64,000 nucleotides of DNA from an uncultured Candidatus Saccharibacteria bacterium (GCA_964579635.1 CAZOFV010000004.1:817-64816); one strand, 5' to 3'; positions 21,598 through 50,722 are shown, counted from the first letter of the stretch. Notes: generated from the sequence alone by a model not told the origin. Program-made: numbers and translations.

Positions 21598-23880
21598 CTA
21601 AAACTCCTCAACTCGAACCCTACAATCCACCCTACATCTCGCAGGATTCTCACCTTTAGAAGGTTGACAGATTCCATTACCACAAGAGGTGTTTGAACTA
21701 CAGGAAGCATTGATTCCTCCGTATTCGCCAGCACAAGTCCATGTCCATGAAGAAGGAGTTCCTCCTTCTGGTAAAAAGTTGGTATTTGATGGTAATACAG
21801 TAGGTCCTGGTAATCCAACTGTATTACAGAGATTTGATGTTGGTTTCTTTTGAGATGGTATCCCGTTGGCAGAACCGCAGACTCCATCTACTGGGTTATT
21901 AACATTTACTGTTATCGTGCGAGAAGGACAGTTGGTTGACCATAAGCCCATGTTGTCTTGAGCTCTAAAGTAGACAGTGTAGGTTCCAGCAGAAAAAGAT
22001 CTAACGAAACTTACCAAAGAACTAAGTAATGTTCCGGTAGAGCAGTTTCCACTTCTCCATTCATAACCAACAACTGTGCCATCTGCGTCTGTTGCTGATC
22101 CTGTAAACTGCTGGGTTTGATTTTCAAATATGGTGATATCGATTGCTGGGCTGACAATTGATGCGGTTGGTGGTGTAGCTGGGATACAAGAGCTGGTACT
22201 ACTTTGCCAGATGAATAGTGGTGCACAGGTATTACAGCTTACTGGGTTGTTTGCTCCGTTATTACATATTCCATTGGTACAGCCGCCATTACTACATGTA
22301 GCACAAGTGCTTCCATTCCAACCAAGTGGGGTAGAACAAGTGTTGCATGTTGGGTAGTTGTTTGCGCCATTTGAACAAGTTGGAGTAATTGTGAAAGAAC
22401 TGAATGGAGACCAACCGCTGTATAGTCCATTGGAGCTATTGTAAGCATATCCAGAAAGAGTGTTGCTGTTTATCGGTGAAGTGAAGTTTGTGTTGAAAGT
22501 TACGACGTAAGAGACAGTTCTAGTGTTTCCTGATACTGAAGTACTGCAAGACACGAGGTTGATATATTCTGGACCATAACCATTGTAGATTGTTGCAGAG
22601 CCACCACCAGAACAAGCTATTGGTGGTATTTTGTATAATCCTCCGAAGAAGGTAAATCCAATTGATGACCATCCTAGATATCCACGATAGTAACCAGCGT
22701 TCACTCCTTGGTAATTTACTAAAGCGAGTTCGTCGGTAATGAAGGAACCGCCGCCGTAGTTAGAAGCTGTTGAGGTAATGGTGTATTGATTGGTTGCGTT
22801 AGTTAGCACTGTACCACTACTGATAGTGACGTTTGTCATAGTTGGAAGAGGCGGAGATACTGTGAAGTTGGTTGTTGACCAACCAGAACCAGCCCAGACA
22901 GTGTTGTAGCAATATGCAGAAATAGTATGAGCTCCTGGACTAGTCATGGCTCCCGCATAATATGTTCCGGAGGTTGTGTATCCGGCGACTAAATATGTAG
23001 ACCAATCAAGTAGTAAATAACAGTAGTAGCCGTTTGTGGAGGAAAGAGTAAATCCTGGGTTGGCACCATAAGGTACTGGATTTTGCGAAACGGAAGCAGA
23101 TGCGGTGGGAGGATCATAGGTCCAGTAAACAACAACAACGCCCTGCGCGCCATCACCAGCGTAAGTGGGGGTCCCCCAGTCGCAGGTGGCGTTGGAGCCA
23201 AACACTTGGCTGGCAAACACTCCTCCTCCACCACCACCACCTCCTCCACCAGATTGTGGATAGACTAAAGGTGACCCACCACTCCATGCGCCACACGTGC
23301 ACGACGTCTCATTGCAATCATAAAGAAGGGTACAGGTTCCGGCGGTGGCCGCTGAGCCCCCAGCACCTCCAGCACCTCCAGAGCCACTAGCGCCACCGGC
23401 GCCACCAGTAGTTGCCCATCTACTTGGTGGCCAAGAACCATACGAACCGTAACTAGCTGTCCCGTAACCTCCATACCCCGGGGAACCGCCCGTCTGACCA
23501 CCGCCACCGCCATACGCAACCACTGGCCCAATAAGAGAATATCCACCATCACCACCAGGACTTGATGCACCAGACTCACAGTGGGGAGCACCGCCATGAA
23601 CACCGCCCGGGCCAACAGTAACCCAATAAGACTGACCACCTGTTACCGAAAAAGACCCGACACTATAACCTCCTCCTCCGCCACCAGCACCAGCACCTTC
23701 ATTGGTACCACCAGCACCAGCTCCACCACCACCAACTACTACTGCGGTTAGAGAAGACACTCCTGTTGGCACGGTAAAGGTCCCACTGCTAGTAAAAGTA
23801 TATGATTCGGCAAGTGAAATGCTCGGCATCACTGTGAGCAAAACTACTGCAACAATAACCGTAGAGATTATTTTTTTCAT
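21598..23880 (-). CDS. large secreted cell-surface protein with a polyglycine-rich N-domain, Cys-rich repeats, a PKD-like domain and a conserved Cys-containing C-terminal module
   Basis: Signal peptide MKKIISTVIVAVVLLTVMPSISLA. Gly-rich segment at aa about 40-250, including a G10 run. TCxxC-type Cys-rich repeats at aa about 500-555. PKD-like motif SATDADGTVVGYEWR. The C-terminal 200 aa are paralogous to the C-terminus of the 1122-aa neighbour. Confidence 0.8.
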   Translation of the reverse strand: MKKIISTVIVAVVLLTVMPSISLAESYTFTSSGTFTVPTGVSSLTAVVVGGGGAGAGGTNEGAGAGGGGGGYSVGSFSVTGGQSYWVTVGPGGVHGGAPHCESGASSPGGDGGYSLIGPVVAYGGGGGQTGGSPGYGGYGTASYGSYGSWPPSRWATTGGAGGASGSGGAGGAGGSAATAGTCTLLYDCNETSCTCGAWSGGSPLVYPQSGGGGGGGGGGVFASQVFGSNATCDWGTPTYAGDGAQGVVVVYWTYDPPTASASVSQNPVPYGANPGFTLSSTNGYYCYLLLDWSTYLVAGYTTSGTYYAGAMTSPGAHTISAYCYNTVWAGSGWSTTNFTVSPPLPTMTNVTISSGTVLTNATNQYTITSTASNYGGGSFITDELALVNYQGVNAGYYRGYLGWSSIGFTFFGGLYKIPPIACSGGGSATIYNGYGPEYINLVSCSTSVSGNTRTVSYVVTFNTNFTSPINSNTLSGYAYNSSNGLYSGWSPFSSFTITPTCSNGANNYPTCNTCSTPLGWNGSTCATCSNGGCTNGICNNGANNPVSCNTCAPLFIWQSSTSSCIPATPPTASIVSPAIDITIFENQTQQFTGSATDADGTVVGYEWRSGNCSTGTLLSSLVSFVRSFSAGTYTVYFRAQDNMGLWSTNCPSRTITVNVNNPVDGVCGSANGIPSQKKPTSNLCNTVGLPGPTVLPSNTNFLPEGGTPSSWTWTCAGEYGGINASCSSNTSCGNGICQPSKGENPARCRVDCRVRVEEF
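23221..23250 (-). repeat. in-frame (GGN)10 triplet repeat encoding a Gly10 run
   Basis: Plus strand reads tcctcctccaccaccaccacctcctccacc, which encodes GGGGGGGGGG (aa 211-220 of the 760-aa protein). Confidence 0.8.
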
Positions 23881-24673: not shown

Positions 24674-27600
24674 CTAAAACTCAAAAAACTTAACCTTGCA
24701 ATCTGCCCTACAAGTAGATGGGTTTTCACCTTTAGAAGCCTGACACTTATCGTCACCGCACGATGTTCCTAACTGACGGCATACACCCTCTGAATCACAT
24801 ACTGTACCAACTGAACTACACGAAGCATTTGAGCCATTATATTCACCAGCACAGGTCCATGTCCAAGATAGCGCAGGGTTGTTTTCAGGAAGAATATTGA
24901 TATCTGTGGGTAGAACAGTTGGACTTGGTAAGCCTACTGTGTTACAGAGATTAGAGGTTGGTTTCTTTTGAGTTGGAACGCCGTTAGCAGAGCCACAAAC
25001 TCCTGGTATTGGATCTGGTGTAGTAACGGTCAATCGACGATATCGGCATGGTGATGACCATGCCCCGGAATCATCTTGGCCCCTGAAAAAAATCCAGTAT
25101 GTTCCGGGAACAAATGAACGAACAAAACTTGTTAAAGAACTAATGAGTGTGCCGGAGGTGCAGTTATCGAGTCTCCATTCATAAGCCACTATAGTACCGT
25201 CAATATCGGCGTCTGTGGCCGCACCAGAAAATTGCTGTGACTGGGAGCTGTTTATTGTGATGTCTGTAGCGGGGCTAATGATTGTCGCTGTTGGTAATTT
25301 GTTTTTATACGCATAACAGGTAGGATTTGCTCCATTTACCCCACGACACTCCCACTGATAACGATCAAGAAGGTTCCAAACATAACCCGGAGTACCTGTA
25401 TTGCAAAGCCCAGAAGTTGGAGCAGTTGTTAACCTTGTAGTCCCATTAGCTGGGCCACAAGAACCGTTAACTATGGATGTTACTATGTTTATAGTCTTAA
25501 AAACGTTTGCAGATTGATTATTATTAGAATCTTGTGTTCTTACATAAAAAACTTTCGTTCCAGTTGTGCCCCATGTACGACTAATTGTTTGAGGGGTCCC
25601 AGACGGAACATATCCAACCGCAGGAGCCCATTCGTCAATAATAGTGTCGAAGTTCCAGTCAAAGCCATACCTAACATTATCACCATCAATATCTGTTGCG
25701 GTAGCTGTAAAACTTACGGGAGTATTCACAAGACTAGGATCCTGATAAACAAGAGTTGGTGTTGATGGTGGATTACTTGGAGGAGCTGCAGTAAATGAGA
25801 AAGAAAGACTCATGGCTTGAACATCGAAATTAAGACCACCGGAACGCCCATATTGACCTGTTTGTCTACTGTCATAACTAATAAATTGTCCCGCTCGAAG
25901 AAAACCACTTGTAGCTGGGTATGAAACATACATATTAATTGGTTGTCCAGAAGAAGCTGTAACTAAACAATCAGAATAAAAAGGACTATAGCTCACAGTT
26001 GGAGCACACCACGTAGGATCACCAGGGTACAGCGAACAGAAAAAGCTGTTATATGGAGCAACTGTCCTCACACCACCTAAAGTAGCTCCACAGCTAAGAC
26101 CGCTTCCAGAGACAGAAAATGTTGGAGGTATGGTGGCCATATCCCCTTGATAAATAATGTAATACCAACCACCAGAAACATAATTAATGTTGGCACACTC
26201 ATTATATGTTGTACAAGATTTTGCAGAGGTGTCCCATCGTCCATACGGAGAGTCATATTCACCACCTGTGCCAACCCAAGAACTTGCGCCACTATTTGGA
26301 TTCCAGGTCACCCTAACAGTAGCGCCGGTTGGAATTGAGGATCCATCAAGTATCTCTGCCCCAAAAAGAGTTACAGTGGCATTGTATATCACCGTCGCTG
26401 TTATTCCCGCGACCCCGTAACCAGTCGGATTAGAAGACCCCTCACTAAAACCAAGTATCGGCAAGCTTTGTGTTGTCCCAACGCTCTTTGCTTCTGCTAA
26501 TAGTGGCACCGTAAAAGAAGACCCGAGAAAAATAAGTATTAACACAAGAGAAATTGGCAATTTTTTCCTACCACGAAAAACTCTCCACAAAATATAAGCG
26601 ATAGACAAAAGAACCAAACCACCTAAAACAATAGCGCCCGTATTCGTTTTTTTAGGACAGATGTCAGGGTTAATATTCCGACAATCATAAACCTCTTTTA
26701 CTTCCTCAACTACTTCTCCTTTGTGTTTAAGTGTGGCAGTTAAGGAAAATGTTGTGTAATTTTTTTTCGGAGTAAACAGATCTTTTACCCCCATCATTGT
26801 ACTTGTAATATCTCCAGCATACTCATAGGAATGGATAAATCTCCCATTTTCATCCCTTAGTGTTAAAGTCAAGGTGTTATCTTTAACAAAGCCGTCACTA
26901 ACCGCGTGAACGCAAGAAAAAAGCGTATTTTCCTTATTTTTTTCAAGTGGATAGCTCATAATACTTGGAAAATTTATTCTTGTTTCCTCAATGCCATCAC
27001 GAACAAAACGAATGTTAAGAATTGATTTACTAGAAAGATCTCTGGTCTCTACTACAAGATAAGAAACAATCGCCCCGGTTGGTAAGGCGGTATATGAAAT
27101 TTCTTTGGTCTCTCTTGGCTTTAATTGCACAGATTCTGTTTTTATATCCTTAAGATTTTCTTCACGAAGACCATCCCAGTTATATAATTTCCAAACGACA
27201 GGGACTGTCACTGATTCGTTTTTCGGGTTTACAATCTTAACAACAACGCTCACTGGATCATCTTTTGAAAAATGAAGGGGGAAGGCGGCAAAACGATGTG
27301 GTTGCTTGTTCAAAGTAACCGTACTCTTGTCAAAAGCGACAACGCCAATCTTGCTATCATTAACAACAGAAAAATAAACCTGATTACCAACTACGTCATC
27401 AGTAAAAGAAAGTCCTAAAAGGTTATAGCGCTTAGCGGTCTGAAAAAAGAAGGTTGCAATATAATCTCCAGCCGGAGCGTTATCTGGAACTTTCCATAAA
27501 AATGACGTCTTCTTACTTCCTTTTGCTGGGAGTGTAAAGGTTTCGTTGAGTGGAAACTGGTCAACTAGCTCAAACCCATTTTCTTGGTCAAAATTTTCTC

Positions 27601-30801: not shown

Positions 30802-31779
30802 TTATAGATATAATTCCCGATTTCTTTTATGCTCTTCAAAATCCTTCCCGTAATAGACAGTACCATTTTTATCCGAAAGGTAGAAAAGATAGGGCGATTC
30901 TGTAGGATAAAGAGCTGCTGTTATTGAAGAAATTCCTGGATTTGAAATTGGTCCAACCGGTAAACCTCTATTCTGATAAGTGTTGTAAGGCGAATTACCC
31001 CTCAAATCGCTTCTTGTTAATTCATAGGTATTTCTACCAATTGAATATATAAAAGGTGCGTCAACTTGTAGTGCCATACCGATTTTAATTCTTTTCCACA
31101 AAATCCCAGAGATCATTTTTCTATCTTCCTCTTTCCTTGCCTCCTCTTCAATGATTGAAGCCATAATTATAATATCCCTAAAATCTTTGCCTAATTTTTC
31201 GGCTGAGCGTTTTAGTGTATCTGTTTTTACTTTAAAATTTTCTTCTAGCACCTTTGCCACATTTTCTGTTTTTGTGTTTGTGTAAAAAACATAAGTGTCT
31301 GGAAAAAGATAACCCTCCTTACCTTCCGTCAATTTCATAAACTCCTCGGCGTTAAATCTTGGAAGTTTTTTTTCTGCAATTTTTGCCATTTCCGCTATTG
31401 TTGAGCCTTCGGGAAAAGTTATTTTCACTGGTTCAAAACCAAAATCACCTTTTATAATCCTAAAAGACAAACTAACAACACTCGCTGGTTTCGGTAAAAA
31501 ATATTCCCCAACTTGCACACCACGTTCTCCACCAAGAATGTAGACAAATGCCTTAAATACAAATGGTGAACGAATCACATTTTCATTTTTCAAAAGATCA
31601 GCTGTTTCTGAAAGAGTAAGCCCTTCTTTTATCTCAATAGAGTGTTGTGCGGGAAAATTATATGGTGGGATTATATACACCCCCAAAAACACAAAAACAG
31701 AAAGTATGGCAACGGCTATCCATCTCCACCATTTACTAGATATCAATGAATAAAAAGCGTAATTTTTAAAAGGAATCAT
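30802..31779 (-). CDS. mltG: endolytic murein transglycosylase MltG (YceG family)
   Basis: N-terminal TM followed by a YceG-like domain with …YNTYQNRGLPVGPISNPG…. Confidence 0.8.
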   Translation of the reverse strand: MIPFKNYAFYSLISSKWWRWIAVAILSVFVFLGVYIIPPYNFPAQHSIEIKEGLTLSETADLLKNENVIRSPFVFKAFVYILGGERGVQVGEYFLPKPASVVSLSFRIIKGDFGFEPVKITFPEGSTIAEMAKIAEKKLPRFNAEEFMKLTEGKEGYLFPDTYVFYTNTKTENVAKVLEENFKVKTDTLKRSAEKLGKDFRDIIIMASIIEEEARKEEDRKMISGILWKRIKIGMALQVDAPFIYSIGRNTYELTRSDLRGNSPYNTYQNRGLPVGPISNPGISSITAALYPTESPYLFYLSDKNGTVYYGKDFEEHKRNRELYL

Positions 31780-40503: not shown

Positions 40504-40863
40504 TTACTGAATCGTTCCAATTGCTTTACCAATTTTTTGCAAAACATCTTCAATGTCTTCTCTTAACGCTATGTTGTGTCCCTCTTTTACAACAGTGGCT
40601 AAATAACCACCTAGTTCATTTTTTACCCCAATGATTTGTTTTTCCAACATGTCAACGTTTTCAGACGATGGGCCATCAACCTCACGCAACACTATAAGAT
40701 TACCGATAAGTTCGTTTATAGCGTCAACTCGCTCATAGAAATCTTCTTCTATATCCATAACATCCAAACTACGTCCCTCTTTTTTAGCTAGCGGTGTTGT
40801 AATATCTTCATCAGCAATAAAAACTTCTCTTCGTTGTGCAGGATCGTGTTCTCCGAATTTCAT
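40504..40863 (-). CDS. hypothetical protein
   Basis: 119-aa acidic ORF with no recognised family. Confidence 0.45.
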   Translation of the reverse strand: MKFGEHDPAQRREVFIADEDITTPLAKKEGRSLDVMDIEEDFYERVDAINELIGNLIVLREVDGPSSENVDMLEKQIIGVKNELGGYLATVVKEGHNIALREDIEDVLQKIGKAIGTIQ

Positions 40864-40904
40864 AATTTTTTTATATCGTTACTTATAAAGACTTATAAAA
40901 GGTA

Positions 40905-41120
40905 TTATACCGCAGGGCAAGCCCTGCACCCAAAGCGTGTTCGCTTCGCTCACGCTTTAGCGCGGTAAGCCGCGCGGTATTTTAATCCCTTATATTGCTC
41001 TCCTCGGCTCGGAAATGAGAAAGATTACTTTCTCATTTCACTCTCTCTACGTCGGCAATAAACATTCATAAATAATTATTTGGCGACACCGTCTGTGTTT
41101 TTAAACAGACGGTGTTTTTG
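40905..41120 (+). ncRNA. putative structured small RNA: GC-rich hairpin cluster ending in an intrinsic terminator
   Basis: Three adjacent perfect hairpins (40912-40927, 40932-40958, 40960-40975) enclosed by the stem ataccgc/gcggtat. A 12-bp perfect stem lies at 41012-41039. A terminator stem caccgtctgt/acagacggtg plus TTTTT lies at 41087-41119. Nothing matches tRNA, tmRNA, RNase P or SRP consensus. Confidence 0.25.
41086..41120 (+). terminator. intrinsic terminator (10-bp stem + U5)
   Basis: acaccgtctgtGTTTTTAAacagacggtgTTTTTg. Confidence 0.6.
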
Positions 41121-41128
41121 CCAAATCG

Positions 41129-41326
41129 TTAATCTGCGTATCGTTTGCCCTCCCTGACTAACTCTAGGTGGCATGTCCGAACTTCTCCCTTTACGCTTTC
41201 CGTTTTTGTTTGCGAAAAATCGAAGGCGTTTGCATAAAGCACCGCCGGCACGTGCACAAAGTGCGCAAACCACCAGGCAAGAATACTGCCGGAAACGTCG
41301 CCCCAATACTCTAAATTAACGTTCAT
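41129..41326 (-). CDS. hypothetical 65-aa protein of atypical (higher) GC with a strong RBS
   Basis: AAGGAG lies 6 nt upstream of the ATG (taaggagaaaagcATG). Sequence MNVNLEYWGDVSGSILAWWFAHFVHVPAVLYANAF…. GC is clearly above background. The overlapping 41076..41306 ORF lacks an RBS. Confidence 0.35.
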   Translation of the reverse strand: MNVNLEYWGDVSGSILAWWFAHFVHVPAVLYANAFDFSQTKTESVKGEVRTCHLELVREGKRYAD

Positions 41327-41450
41327 GCTTTTCTCCTTATTTAAGGTACCCTATCTCAGCATACCTCATGACCAAAATTGGTCAATGTATAAAAACCATA
41401 CCTAAACAGATAAGCTTCTAAACAATTAAGAATTAATCTATACTATACAA

Positions 41451-42449
41451 ATGAAACAAAAGCTCGGAGCAAAAAGAACTCAACAAAACAAATCTAAGAA
41501 AAAAATAAAGTTATTCAGTAGTGGAGTTTTATTTTTAGGCCTCGTCACTGCCACTTTTTTTATAGCTATTGTTGGTCTATATCTAATTGGTAAAAAAGGA
41601 TCTCTCGCGCCAGACCAACACTTCATTGTCACAGTTGATCCTGTTAAAAAACGAGTACTCGGAGAAAAAGAGAGTCCAGAAAAAGAAGAAGTAAAAATTA
41701 CACAAGAAGTTGCAAATAAAGTTTACGAAATTTTAACCGATAACATTTCAGCAATTTCATCTCTTGCAAATCCATCTATTAAACATGTACGTGTGCAACC
41801 GGGAATGCGAAAAGAAGAAATTGCTGACATTCTCGCAAAAAAATTAAACTGGGACGCAAAGGCTGAAAATATTTTTCTAACAACAAGAAGCGAGGTTGTT
41901 CTTGATGATATAAAATTTACCGAAGGGTATTATTTCCCAACTGGTTATTCTTTTGAAAAGAATACCCCACCAGAAAAGGTCGCTGAGGTAATGATAAGTG
42001 AGTTTAAAGAAGAAATTGCGGATAAATTTGCCAGTTCAACCAAATCCATAATCTCAATAGAAACTGCATTAAAAATAGCTTCTATAATTGAACGAGAATC
42101 AAATGGGACCCGTGACATGCGTCTTATTTCAGGGATTATCTGGAATCGTATTTTCAACGGCATGAGTTTAGATATTGACGCAACACTACAGTACGCAAAA
42201 GGATCTGAGAAAAATGGTTGGTGGCCAAAAGTATTATCTGAAGACAAATACATAGAATCGCCATATAATACGTACCAGAACAAAGGGCTTCCACCATCAC
42301 CAATCTCAAGTCCGAGCATGGCAGCAATCCAAGCTGCATTAAATCCCAAAAAAACAGAGTGCCTCTTTTATCTACACGATAAAAGAAGAAATATCCACTG
42401 CTCTGTAACATACCAAGAACACGTTAAAAATATTAATCGTTATTATTAA
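41451..42449 (+). CDS. MltG/YceG-family endolytic transglycosylase, second paralog
   Basis: N-terminal TM and a YceG-like C-terminal domain …YNTYQNKGLPPSPISSPS…. Confidence 0.75.
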   Translation: MKQKLGAKRTQQNKSKKKIKLFSSGVLFLGLVTATFFIAIVGLYLIGKKGSLAPDQHFIVTVDPVKKRVLGEKESPEKEEVKITQEVANKVYEILTDNISAISSLANPSIKHVRVQPGMRKEEIADILAKKLNWDAKAENIFLTTRSEVVLDDIKFTEGYYFPTGYSFEKNTPPEKVAEVMISEFKEEIADKFASSTKSIISIETALKIASIIERESNGTRDMRLISGIIWNRIFNGMSLDIDATLQYAKGSEKNGWWPKVLSEDKYIESPYNTYQNKGLPPSPISSPSMAAIQAALNPKKTECLFYLHDKRRNIHCSVTYQEHVKNINRYY

Positions 42450-46474: not shown

Positions 46475-46529
46475 TTTTGTAATTTGTATAGTATAGTATT
46501 AAACGGAAACGCTCAACTGAGCGTCGTTT

Positions 46530-50657: not shown

Positions 50658-50722
50658 GTTTACCACAGCTGGAAATGACTAGAACTATTTAGTAGATAGA
50701 GGCGCTTCCAGCTGTGGTAAAC
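50658..50722. repeat. perfect 17-bp inverted repeat with a 31-bp spacer
   Basis: gtttaccacagctggaa (50658-50674) versus ttccagctgtggtaaac (50706-50722). Confidence 0.8.

Follow-up and report, generated by a model that had tools for sequence, protein, structure and literature searches.

The 64-kb window (the whole 64,000-nucleotide stretch of Candidatus Saccharibacteria DNA analysed here) contains, between two divergent genes, a 587-bp spacer (40864-41450) crowded with hairpins, and the question that this locus raises is what those hairpins are. The preliminary description took them, most simply, for one plus-strand structured sRNA of ∼215 nt that ends at 41120 and lies next to a horizontally acquired small gene. 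The spacer holds the whole of that finding (Table 1). Comparison with related loci, and with homologous copies in other genomes, leads us to read the island instead as three separate things: a copy of a repeat, a terminator hairpin and a small-protein gene.

Table 1. Coordinates of the spacer's features and of its flanking genes, counted along the window.
Feature	Position	Strand	Remark or basis
119-aa ORF	40504-40863	-	No Pfam match
10-nt tandem duplication, ACTTATAAAG / ACTTATAAA	40881-40899		Abuts the repeat end and overlaps the TTTAT junction; present once in L222
Interspersed structured repeat, one complete copy	40892-41064	Model orientation = window +	Matches to CM R1 and CM R2
Outer helix P0	AAGG 40899-40902 / CCTT 40988-40991		Encloses domain 1
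Domain 1, four-way junction	40907-40980		Folding and alignment
P1	ATACC 40907-40911 / GGTAT 40976-40980		Closing stem of domain 1
Hairpin 1	40912-40917 / 40922-40927		Perfect; loop CAAG
Hairpin 2	40932-40939 / 40951-40958		Perfect
Hairpin 3	40960-40965 / 40970-40975		Perfect; loop TAAG
Domain 2	40990-41064		Alignment A7, 74 copies
Domain 2 outer stem	TATTGC 40993-40998 / GCAATA 41055-41060		
Domain 2 conserved loop strands	CTCCTCGGCTCGG 41000-41012; ACTCTCTCTACGTCG 41040-41054		Nearly invariant
Domain 2 inner 12-bp hairpin	41012-41039		Perfect stem 41012-41023 / 41028-41039
Extended hairpin (predicted terminator)	41079-41125		Inner 11-bp stem 41086-41096 / 41105-41115; outer TTTGGC 41079-41084 / GCCAAA 41120-41125
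Small-protein gene, 65 aa, one hydrophobic segment	41129-41326	-	Conserved in relatives
Shine-Dalgarno AAGGAG	41333-41338	-	TAAGGAGAAA invariant in 10 syntenic loci
Promoter TTGACC, 16-nt spacer, TATGCT	41358-41385	-	Consensus scan; both hexamers invariant in all relatives
YceG/MltG gene	41451-42449	+	Right-hand neighbour of the spacer

The individual structures lie where they were first described. The three perfect hairpins (40912-40927, 40932-40958 and 40960-40975), the 12-bp perfect stem and the 65-aa minus-strand ORF, with AAGGAG 6 nt before its ATG, are all present. The 7-bp stem thought to close the three hairpins is indeed complementary over 7 nt (ATACCGC/GCGGTAT), but hairpins 1 and 3 compete for its inner 2 bp, which leaves a closing stem of 5 bp. 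The high GC content attributed to the island is raised, but only moderately: 200-nt segments give 0.43-0.49, the window as a whole ∼0.37, and stretches elsewhere in it reach 0.59. The structure potential is as exceptional as claimed, in that 40890-41125 folds far beyond chance on both strands: -88.8 kcal/mol on the plus strand (z = -8.2, 0/200 shuffles) and -91.1 kcal/mol on the minus strand (z = -8.4). All ∼43 stem pairs of the window copy are Watson-Crick, and the fold therefore carries no strand information. The earlier choice of the plus strand is not supported; several weak signals, set out below, lean towards the minus. ARAGORN detected no tRNA or tmRNA at the island, and Rfam 15 gave no match at gathering thresholds and, scanned permissively over 40700-41600 (E <= 10), only chance-level ones, in line with the earlier failure to match the island to a tRNA, tmRNA, RNase P, SRP or 6S consensus.

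Our revised reading begins with the relatives of the locus. These were reached via homologues of the 119-aa protein, 71-91% identical to it (at 91%, the closest named one belongs to 'Parcubacteria group bacterium LiPW_30'), and were aligned so as to read along the minus strand of the window. All of them keep the order YceG, spacer, 119-aa gene. The hairpin-dense block, 40906-41059, is missing from every syntenic relative: CM R1 has no match on them, and the element is absent from L005-L015. The relatives do keep the hairpin at 41079-41125 and the small ORF. Block and terminator therefore have separate histories, which speaks against a single sRNA running through both.

The small ORF fares differently from the block. 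Relatives conserve its promoter, ribosome-binding site, core peptide (SG..LAWWFA.FVH.PA..YA) and terminator at the corresponding locus, and its substitutions fall mostly at the third codon position (8-11, against 2-4 at positions 1 and 2), which speaks against the proposed horizontal acquisition. The ORF is called as a gene in L012, L014 and L223, and its homologues include P0006 (66 aa, 55% identity, same C-terminal tail) and P0008. Pfam has no family for the 65-aa protein, and of 1.84 billion representatives scanned in full, only 5 matched it. We take the ORF to be a real, clade-restricted small-protein gene, and not a recent import.

Of the plus-strand terminator placed at 41086-41120, the 11-bp perfect stem and the T5 that follows it are confirmed, but a simple terminator scanner does not list it. 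Downstream of the small ORF on the minus strand, 3 nt separate its stop codon from the extended stem, after which comes a U-rich tail, UAAUUAUUUAU. In every relative the core of the hairpin, ACACCGTCTGT / ACAGACGGTGT, is almost unchanged, L014 (ACAGATGGTGT) and L222 having one change each, while the lower stem TTGGN/NCCAA covaries (GGC/GCC versus GGT/ACC). Thus 41079-41125 combines a stem and U-run, a position after a gene and conservation, as expected of an intrinsic terminator; we predict that it terminates the small ORF, possibly in both directions, and place it outside the repeat.

The block that the relatives lack lies 29 nt upstream of the ATG of the 119-aa gene and 15 nt beyond the terminator hairpin. 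One relative, L222, which has the same long-tailed small ORF as the window, presents the empty site with a single TTTAT (...AATA-TTTAT-AAGTAA...). The window has TTTAT on both sides: ...AATG-TTTAT, the element (TGCC...ATACCT), then TTTAT-AAGTC-TTTATAAGTAA. Two other relatives, L005 and L012, keep a ∼25-nt remnant, TTATTAATG plus CTTGATACCCTTTAT, that matches the terminal consensus of the family at 11/11 positions. As a separate observation, Logan unitigs of the same organism from three runs (L001-L004) break off within the repeat, at 40935 or 40941, and pick up again at 41037, still within it, with flanks identical to the window save one SNP; the breaks point to strain heterogeneity or to k-mers common within the element.

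The block is no single-copy RNA gene but a copy of a dispersed repeat. The 21-mer at 40907-40927 (ATACCGCAGGGCAAGCCCTGC) has 77 exact-match loci in GTDB species genomes. Treponema Nl494_bin32 accounts for 21 of these loci (23 exact matches) and Spirochaetaceae Nm470_bin66 for 11. The 21-mer is also found in Clostridia, Oscillospiraceae and Christensenellaceae MAGs and in one Saccharibacteria MAG, often at contig ends, and the termite-gut Treponema MAGs carry many copies each. A domain 2 18-mer (41000-41017) adds at least 120 loci in groundwater and sediment metagenomes, with ∼110 of 124 matches among those listed being true copies. At least ∼170 homologous copies, with architecture and loop sequences in common, were gathered in this way from genomes and metagenome contigs. 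It is important to note that they were collected with exact seeds taken from the window element, so that conservation of the seeds themselves is no evidence. The family ranges over Patescibacteria (CPR) MAGs, including Saccharibacteria and the window's own, Parcubacteria-like genome, termite-gut Spirochaetes and Clostridia, and groundwater and sediment contigs without taxonomic assignment. CM R1, built from 22 of the 21-mer copies, matches 40892-41061 on the plus strand (86 bits, E 1.4e-22), and CM R2, for domain 2 alone, matches 40990-41064 on the same strand (79.3 bits, E 1.4e-21); with filters off, R2 finds exactly one copy, and no further one, within the 64-kb window.

The neighbours of the copies are housekeeping genes (LysRS, EF-G, EF-Tu, TyrRS, PrfB). 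Clustering the flanking ORFs revealed no recurrent protein family within 2-2.5 kb of the ∼170 copies, and no mobilising enzyme or RAYT-like gene was found in those flanks. Permissive Rfam scans of Treponema and CPR copies gave no match. Blastn with the island, and with three copies of the family, likewise found nothing among plasmids, phages and E. coli genomes, and the literature that we searched contains no description matching the family. This is apparently a previously undescribed, cross-phylum family of structured interspersed repeats.

In most copies the element opens with AATAAAGGGTAT, TATACC, hairpin 1 and ACCC, continues with hairpin 2 (variable), TTCC, hairpin 3, GGGTAT and TAAACCCTT, and closes with a CU-rich strand, hairpin 4, a second CU-rich strand and CGTCAATAA. 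It measures 150-170 nt, and its minus strand reads TTTATTG...CCTTTAT(T). The AATAAAGGGTAT... and ...CGTCAATAA ends are not inverted copies of each other; that is, there are no terminal inverted repeats. Nor is there a clean target-site duplication: most copies have (A)ATAA(A), which is TTTAT on the other strand, at both ends, and these AATAA ends, like an ATGAA variant, are inherited within subfamilies and therefore appear to belong to the element. In the window's subfamily the copy may reach ∼41074; L203 and the right end of the window copy have AATAAACATTCATAA in common.

In domain 1 a long helix (P0, P1) leads to a junction from which one, three or more variable hairpins branch. In domain 2 an outer stem of ∼7 bp, which covaries freely (TTAGC/GCTAA, TTGGC/GCCAA, CTGGC/GCCAG and others), encloses the 5' strand UCCUC, a 3-bp helix GGC/GCY and a 2x2 pyrimidine mismatch; next come a G-C pair, a bulge of one base and the inner hairpin GAAAUG...CAUUUC, whose top varies. 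Across the family the unpaired strands of domain 2 are near-invariant (CTCCTCGGCTCGG and CTCGCYCTACGTCG on the model strand); the 3' strand CUCGCYCUACGUCG is nearly invariant though it lay outside the search pattern. The window copy deviates from this at 41044, where it has T in place of the consensus G (CTCGC). A 17-codon mini-ORF had also been noted here; its ATG belongs to a conserved GGAAATG motif, but frames and lengths differ among copies (in L085 a stop follows after 3 codons).

The family is modular, with domain-2-only copies, one- and three-hairpin forms of domain 1, extra nested hairpins and tandem dimers, and it appears to grow by hairpin addition and tandem duplication. Individual copies with extra nested hairpins (205-229 nt) or head-to-tail domain 2 dimers are L054 3333-3537, L079 3794-4022, L193, L209 and L216. 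Some further observations concern the wider set of loci. About 13 Treponema-type copies (Treponema- or Clostridia-type loci, L022-L098) have an upstream same-strand ORF that stops at TAA or TGA within the first six bases of the element, examples being L084 1321-1474, L094 4800-4954 and L040 5042-5195, and the consensus element has two reading frames open from end to end. A lone ACCGCAGGGCAAGCCCTGCGGT hairpin, identical to hairpin 1 plus part of P1, occurs in unrelated bacteria (L065 2056-2076, L072 737-757, L092 5120-5140, L036 154-174), in three of these four loci with a T-rich stretch after it, like a terminator. It may be raw material of domain 1, or a coincidence of stable hairpins.

That the block is non-coding with a real fold (40907-41039), as originally proposed, is backed by compensatory changes among the homologous copies. 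Across 66 copies, hairpins 2 and 3 stay paired through two-sided changes, with 95.2% of cells paired. The R1 alignment shows compensatory change in 25/43 pairs and 187 compensatory cells, against 35 ± 4.4 in shuffles (0/500); this alignment, A8, was fitted to the model's structure, and its pair counts therefore lean towards the model. For domain 2 we used A7 (74 copies), which was built with MAFFT and given its structure by hand, and which has 149 compensatory cells against 39 ± 4.7 (0/500); kinship among copies inflates the shuffle statistics of such tests. Slid controls collapse. Hairpin 1 and P1 are invariant among the 66 copies, partly because the 21-mer used for finding copies selects them. 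We conclude that covariation among the aligned copies strongly supports the fold.

Our preferred explanation, to which we assign a probability of roughly 60%, is that 40892-41064 is one copy of a structured repeat family that is non-autonomous and either mobile or formerly so. We favour mobility because there are many copies per genome, the neighbours are unrelated housekeeping genes with no recurrent neighbour protein, the family is modular and leaves remnants, and the element is present or absent at the same locus. The conserved loop strands, positioned by the hairpins, would be the recognition site of a trans-acting enzyme encoded elsewhere, one that probably acts on single-stranded DNA, as for REP/RAYT or IS200/IS605 ends, and selection for recognition by this enzyme would keep the hairpins. 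At the window locus, the copy would be a passenger in a safe intergenic site: it sits between a predicted terminator and a probably leaderless promoter, probably a tolerated position, and any transcription of it would be minus-strand read-through. When one conserved T.G column is excluded, G.U (33) and A.C (42) cells are balanced, as one would expect of young copies or of pairing that matters at the DNA level. The model plus strand lies on the C-rich flank strand, by GC skew, at 42/71 loci of one set and 36/59 of another, a weak trend that is significant in neither set alone.

Several points count against this explanation. We found neither a mobilising enzyme nor a transposition event in progress, a clean target-site duplication is lacking, the 64-kb window shows a single copy, and the copies are biased in orientation relative to genes. 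Loop strands this constant from one phylum to another are, moreover, uncommon in selfish MITEs and could stem from an RNA function for the host, in which case the element would be a module within mRNAs, most likely in the minus (purine-rich) orientation, that spread by host recruitment rather than by selfish transposition. Such a module could process, stabilise or insulate transcripts, signal termination or serve as a protein-binding platform. The loop strands vary little across Spirochaetes, Clostridia and CPR, and the copies adjoin highly expressed housekeeping genes. Among the matches listed for groundwater copies, the 3'-side gene points into the element in 59 cases versus 26 (by crude ORF calls), and co-directional gene pairs there split 26 versus 11. 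On the minus strand, moreover, the 2x2 Y.Y mismatch becomes tandem G.A (CGAG/CGAG), three hairpin loops read G(CUUG)C, the fold is 0-8 kcal/mol more stable in 6/8 copies, and in the inner stem A.C cells of the model strand, read as G.U on the minus, outnumber their opposite 24 to 11. The pairing data are not of one mind, however: there is no overall G.U versus A.C asymmetry (77 versus 42, with one column giving 44/77), the outer stem trends the opposite way (28 versus 17), and G16.U60 pairs only on the model (plus) strand, in 53/74 copies. The element has no GNRA or UNCG loops and no U-tract after it in either orientation. Close relatives do without it at the window locus, and its modular hairpin gain and loss, remnants and tandem dimers resemble repeat dynamics, making us doubt, on balance, that an RNA module is the better account.

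Somewhat less probable again, in our judgement, is that domain 2 is the substrate or active core of an undescribed system, either an ssDNA-transposition end with a distant enzyme or a widespread functional RNA (self-cleaving or protein-recruiting) that is carried by the repeat.

We regard a free-standing plus-strand sRNA of ∼215 nt (∼40907-41120), perhaps antisense to the small hydrophobic ORF in the manner of a type I toxin-antitoxin pair, as very improbable. The stem with T5 on the plus strand is canonical, a weak TTACTT-N18-TATTAT lies upstream, and the small ORF is hydrophobic and convergent. Against this, the relatives keep ORF and hairpin without 40906-41059, the T-run is not conserved in L014, a promoter scan gave no plus-strand promoter, and the block, being a dispersed repeat, has ends of its own at 41061-41064 and stops 15 nt short of the hairpin. 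That the palindromes arose locally, by template-switch or quasi-palindrome mutation, or by chance, without relatives elsewhere, would suit stems that are all perfectly Watson-Crick, but is refuted, to our minds almost completely, by at least ∼170 homologous copies with the same architecture and loop sequences.

Several other candidates were tried and set aside. A hammerhead-like core has GUC and GAAA but CUGANGA is absent; one or two copies per 8 kb do not make a CRISPR array or an integron attC array; and both a riboswitch or attenuator of the 119-aa gene and a type I toxin-antitoxin pairing with the small ORF were rejected on account of the relatives that lack the block.

Other features of the window were recorded in passing. 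The 22-mer CTATACTATACAAATGAAACAA at the YceG start (41438-41459) recurs, inverted, upstream of a UvrC-like ORF (46475-46496), and contains a -10-like TATACT 6 nt before the start codon; the 119-aa gene likewise has TATAAA 6 nt before its ATG (40864-40875) and no Shine-Dalgarno sequence. Such start-proximal TATACT and TATAAA sequences suggest that leaderless-type promoters are used in the window's genome. The stretch of highest G+C (23201-23600, 0.59) has CCACCACCACC-type repeats and is probably a low-complexity coding stretch. There are also a 32-nt inverted repeat (88%; 31251-31282 / 31684-31715) enclosing 401 nt, a 129-nt direct repeat (76%; 21766-21894 / 24884-25012) whose copies are separated by 3.1 kb, and, at 50658-50722, a 30-nt hairpin whose loop is 5 nt.

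These results remove a false lead, in that a 215-nt sRNA beside a horizontally acquired gene is replaced by a conserved small membrane-type protein gene and an inserted repeat. CPR (Patescibacteria) genomes are small, streamlined and usually described as repeat-poor. A structured repeat that recurs by CPR core housekeeping genes, and is common to gut spirochaetes and clostridia, is worth a name and a model. Such a repeat breaks assemblies, as seen in the unitigs of the window organism that end inside it, can pass for an sRNA or a riboswitch, and serves as a marker of recent insertion or deletion between closely related strains. The invariance of its loop strands suggests some enzyme or RNA function, which is directly testable.

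The family belongs to a known kind of element, that of the REP, BOX or bcr1-like repeats. It resembles a classical MITE in its small, non-coding, dispersed copies and in their presence or absence at a locus, but has no terminal inverted repeats matching an IS, and only one copy lies in the 64-kb window. Most BOX-type families have inverted terminal repeats and duplications of known IS type. We know of no cross-phylum conservation in these families, nor of any sequence relation between them and the family described here. The likeness to BOX (Streptococcus pneumoniae), RUP, Correia/NEMIS, ERIC and Rickettsia RPE lies in the variable number of modules, stable hairpins, intergenic position and non-autonomy (PMC3184786); small repeats of the BOX type are also co-transcribed with their neighbours (PMC3184786).

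REP/BIME elements, which bear GTAG or CGTC tags, are similar in pairing hairpins with a conserved unpaired tag. The 3' loop strand of domain 2 holds CTACGTCG, which joins CGTC and the complement of GTAG and so recalls the REP tags (PMC3733652). Like REP/BIME, the family has no inverted terminal repeats, is intergenic and often downstream of genes, and occurs as dimers. REP/BIME are mobilised by RAYT, a Y1 transposase of IS200/IS605 type, whereas the flanks of the family contain no RAYT-like gene, although CGTC repeats are also found without a dedicated transposase (PMC3733652). A REP consists of a single 20-40 bp palindrome, its GTAG or CGTC tag standing at the end, outside the stem. The present module does not fit that description: it is 75 nt long, has its tag within a large internal loop and frequently adjoins a second domain.

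The closest described analogue, likened by description rather than by sequence, appears to be bcr1, the group A repeats of the Bacillus cereus group. These are ∼155 bp, intergenic, multi-copy and variable in position between strains, with TTTAT direct repeats at their ends and a cruciform-like stem-loop fold kept by compensatory changes; they lack a transposase of their own, have been proposed to move by a process resembling site-specific recombination, and often lie in UTRs (PMC3184786, PMC6542083, PMC3446304). The plasmids of PLSDB, a number of which are said to contain bcr1, gave no blastn match to three copies of the family. While bcr1 is reported only from the B. cereus group, the window family spans several phyla, and whereas the TTTAT of bcr1 forms direct repeats, the AATAA ends of the window family behave as part of the element, with no demonstrated duplication. 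In size (150-170 nt), in having TTTAT at both ends and in a multi-stem-loop fold with compensatory changes, the window element is nonetheless like bcr1.
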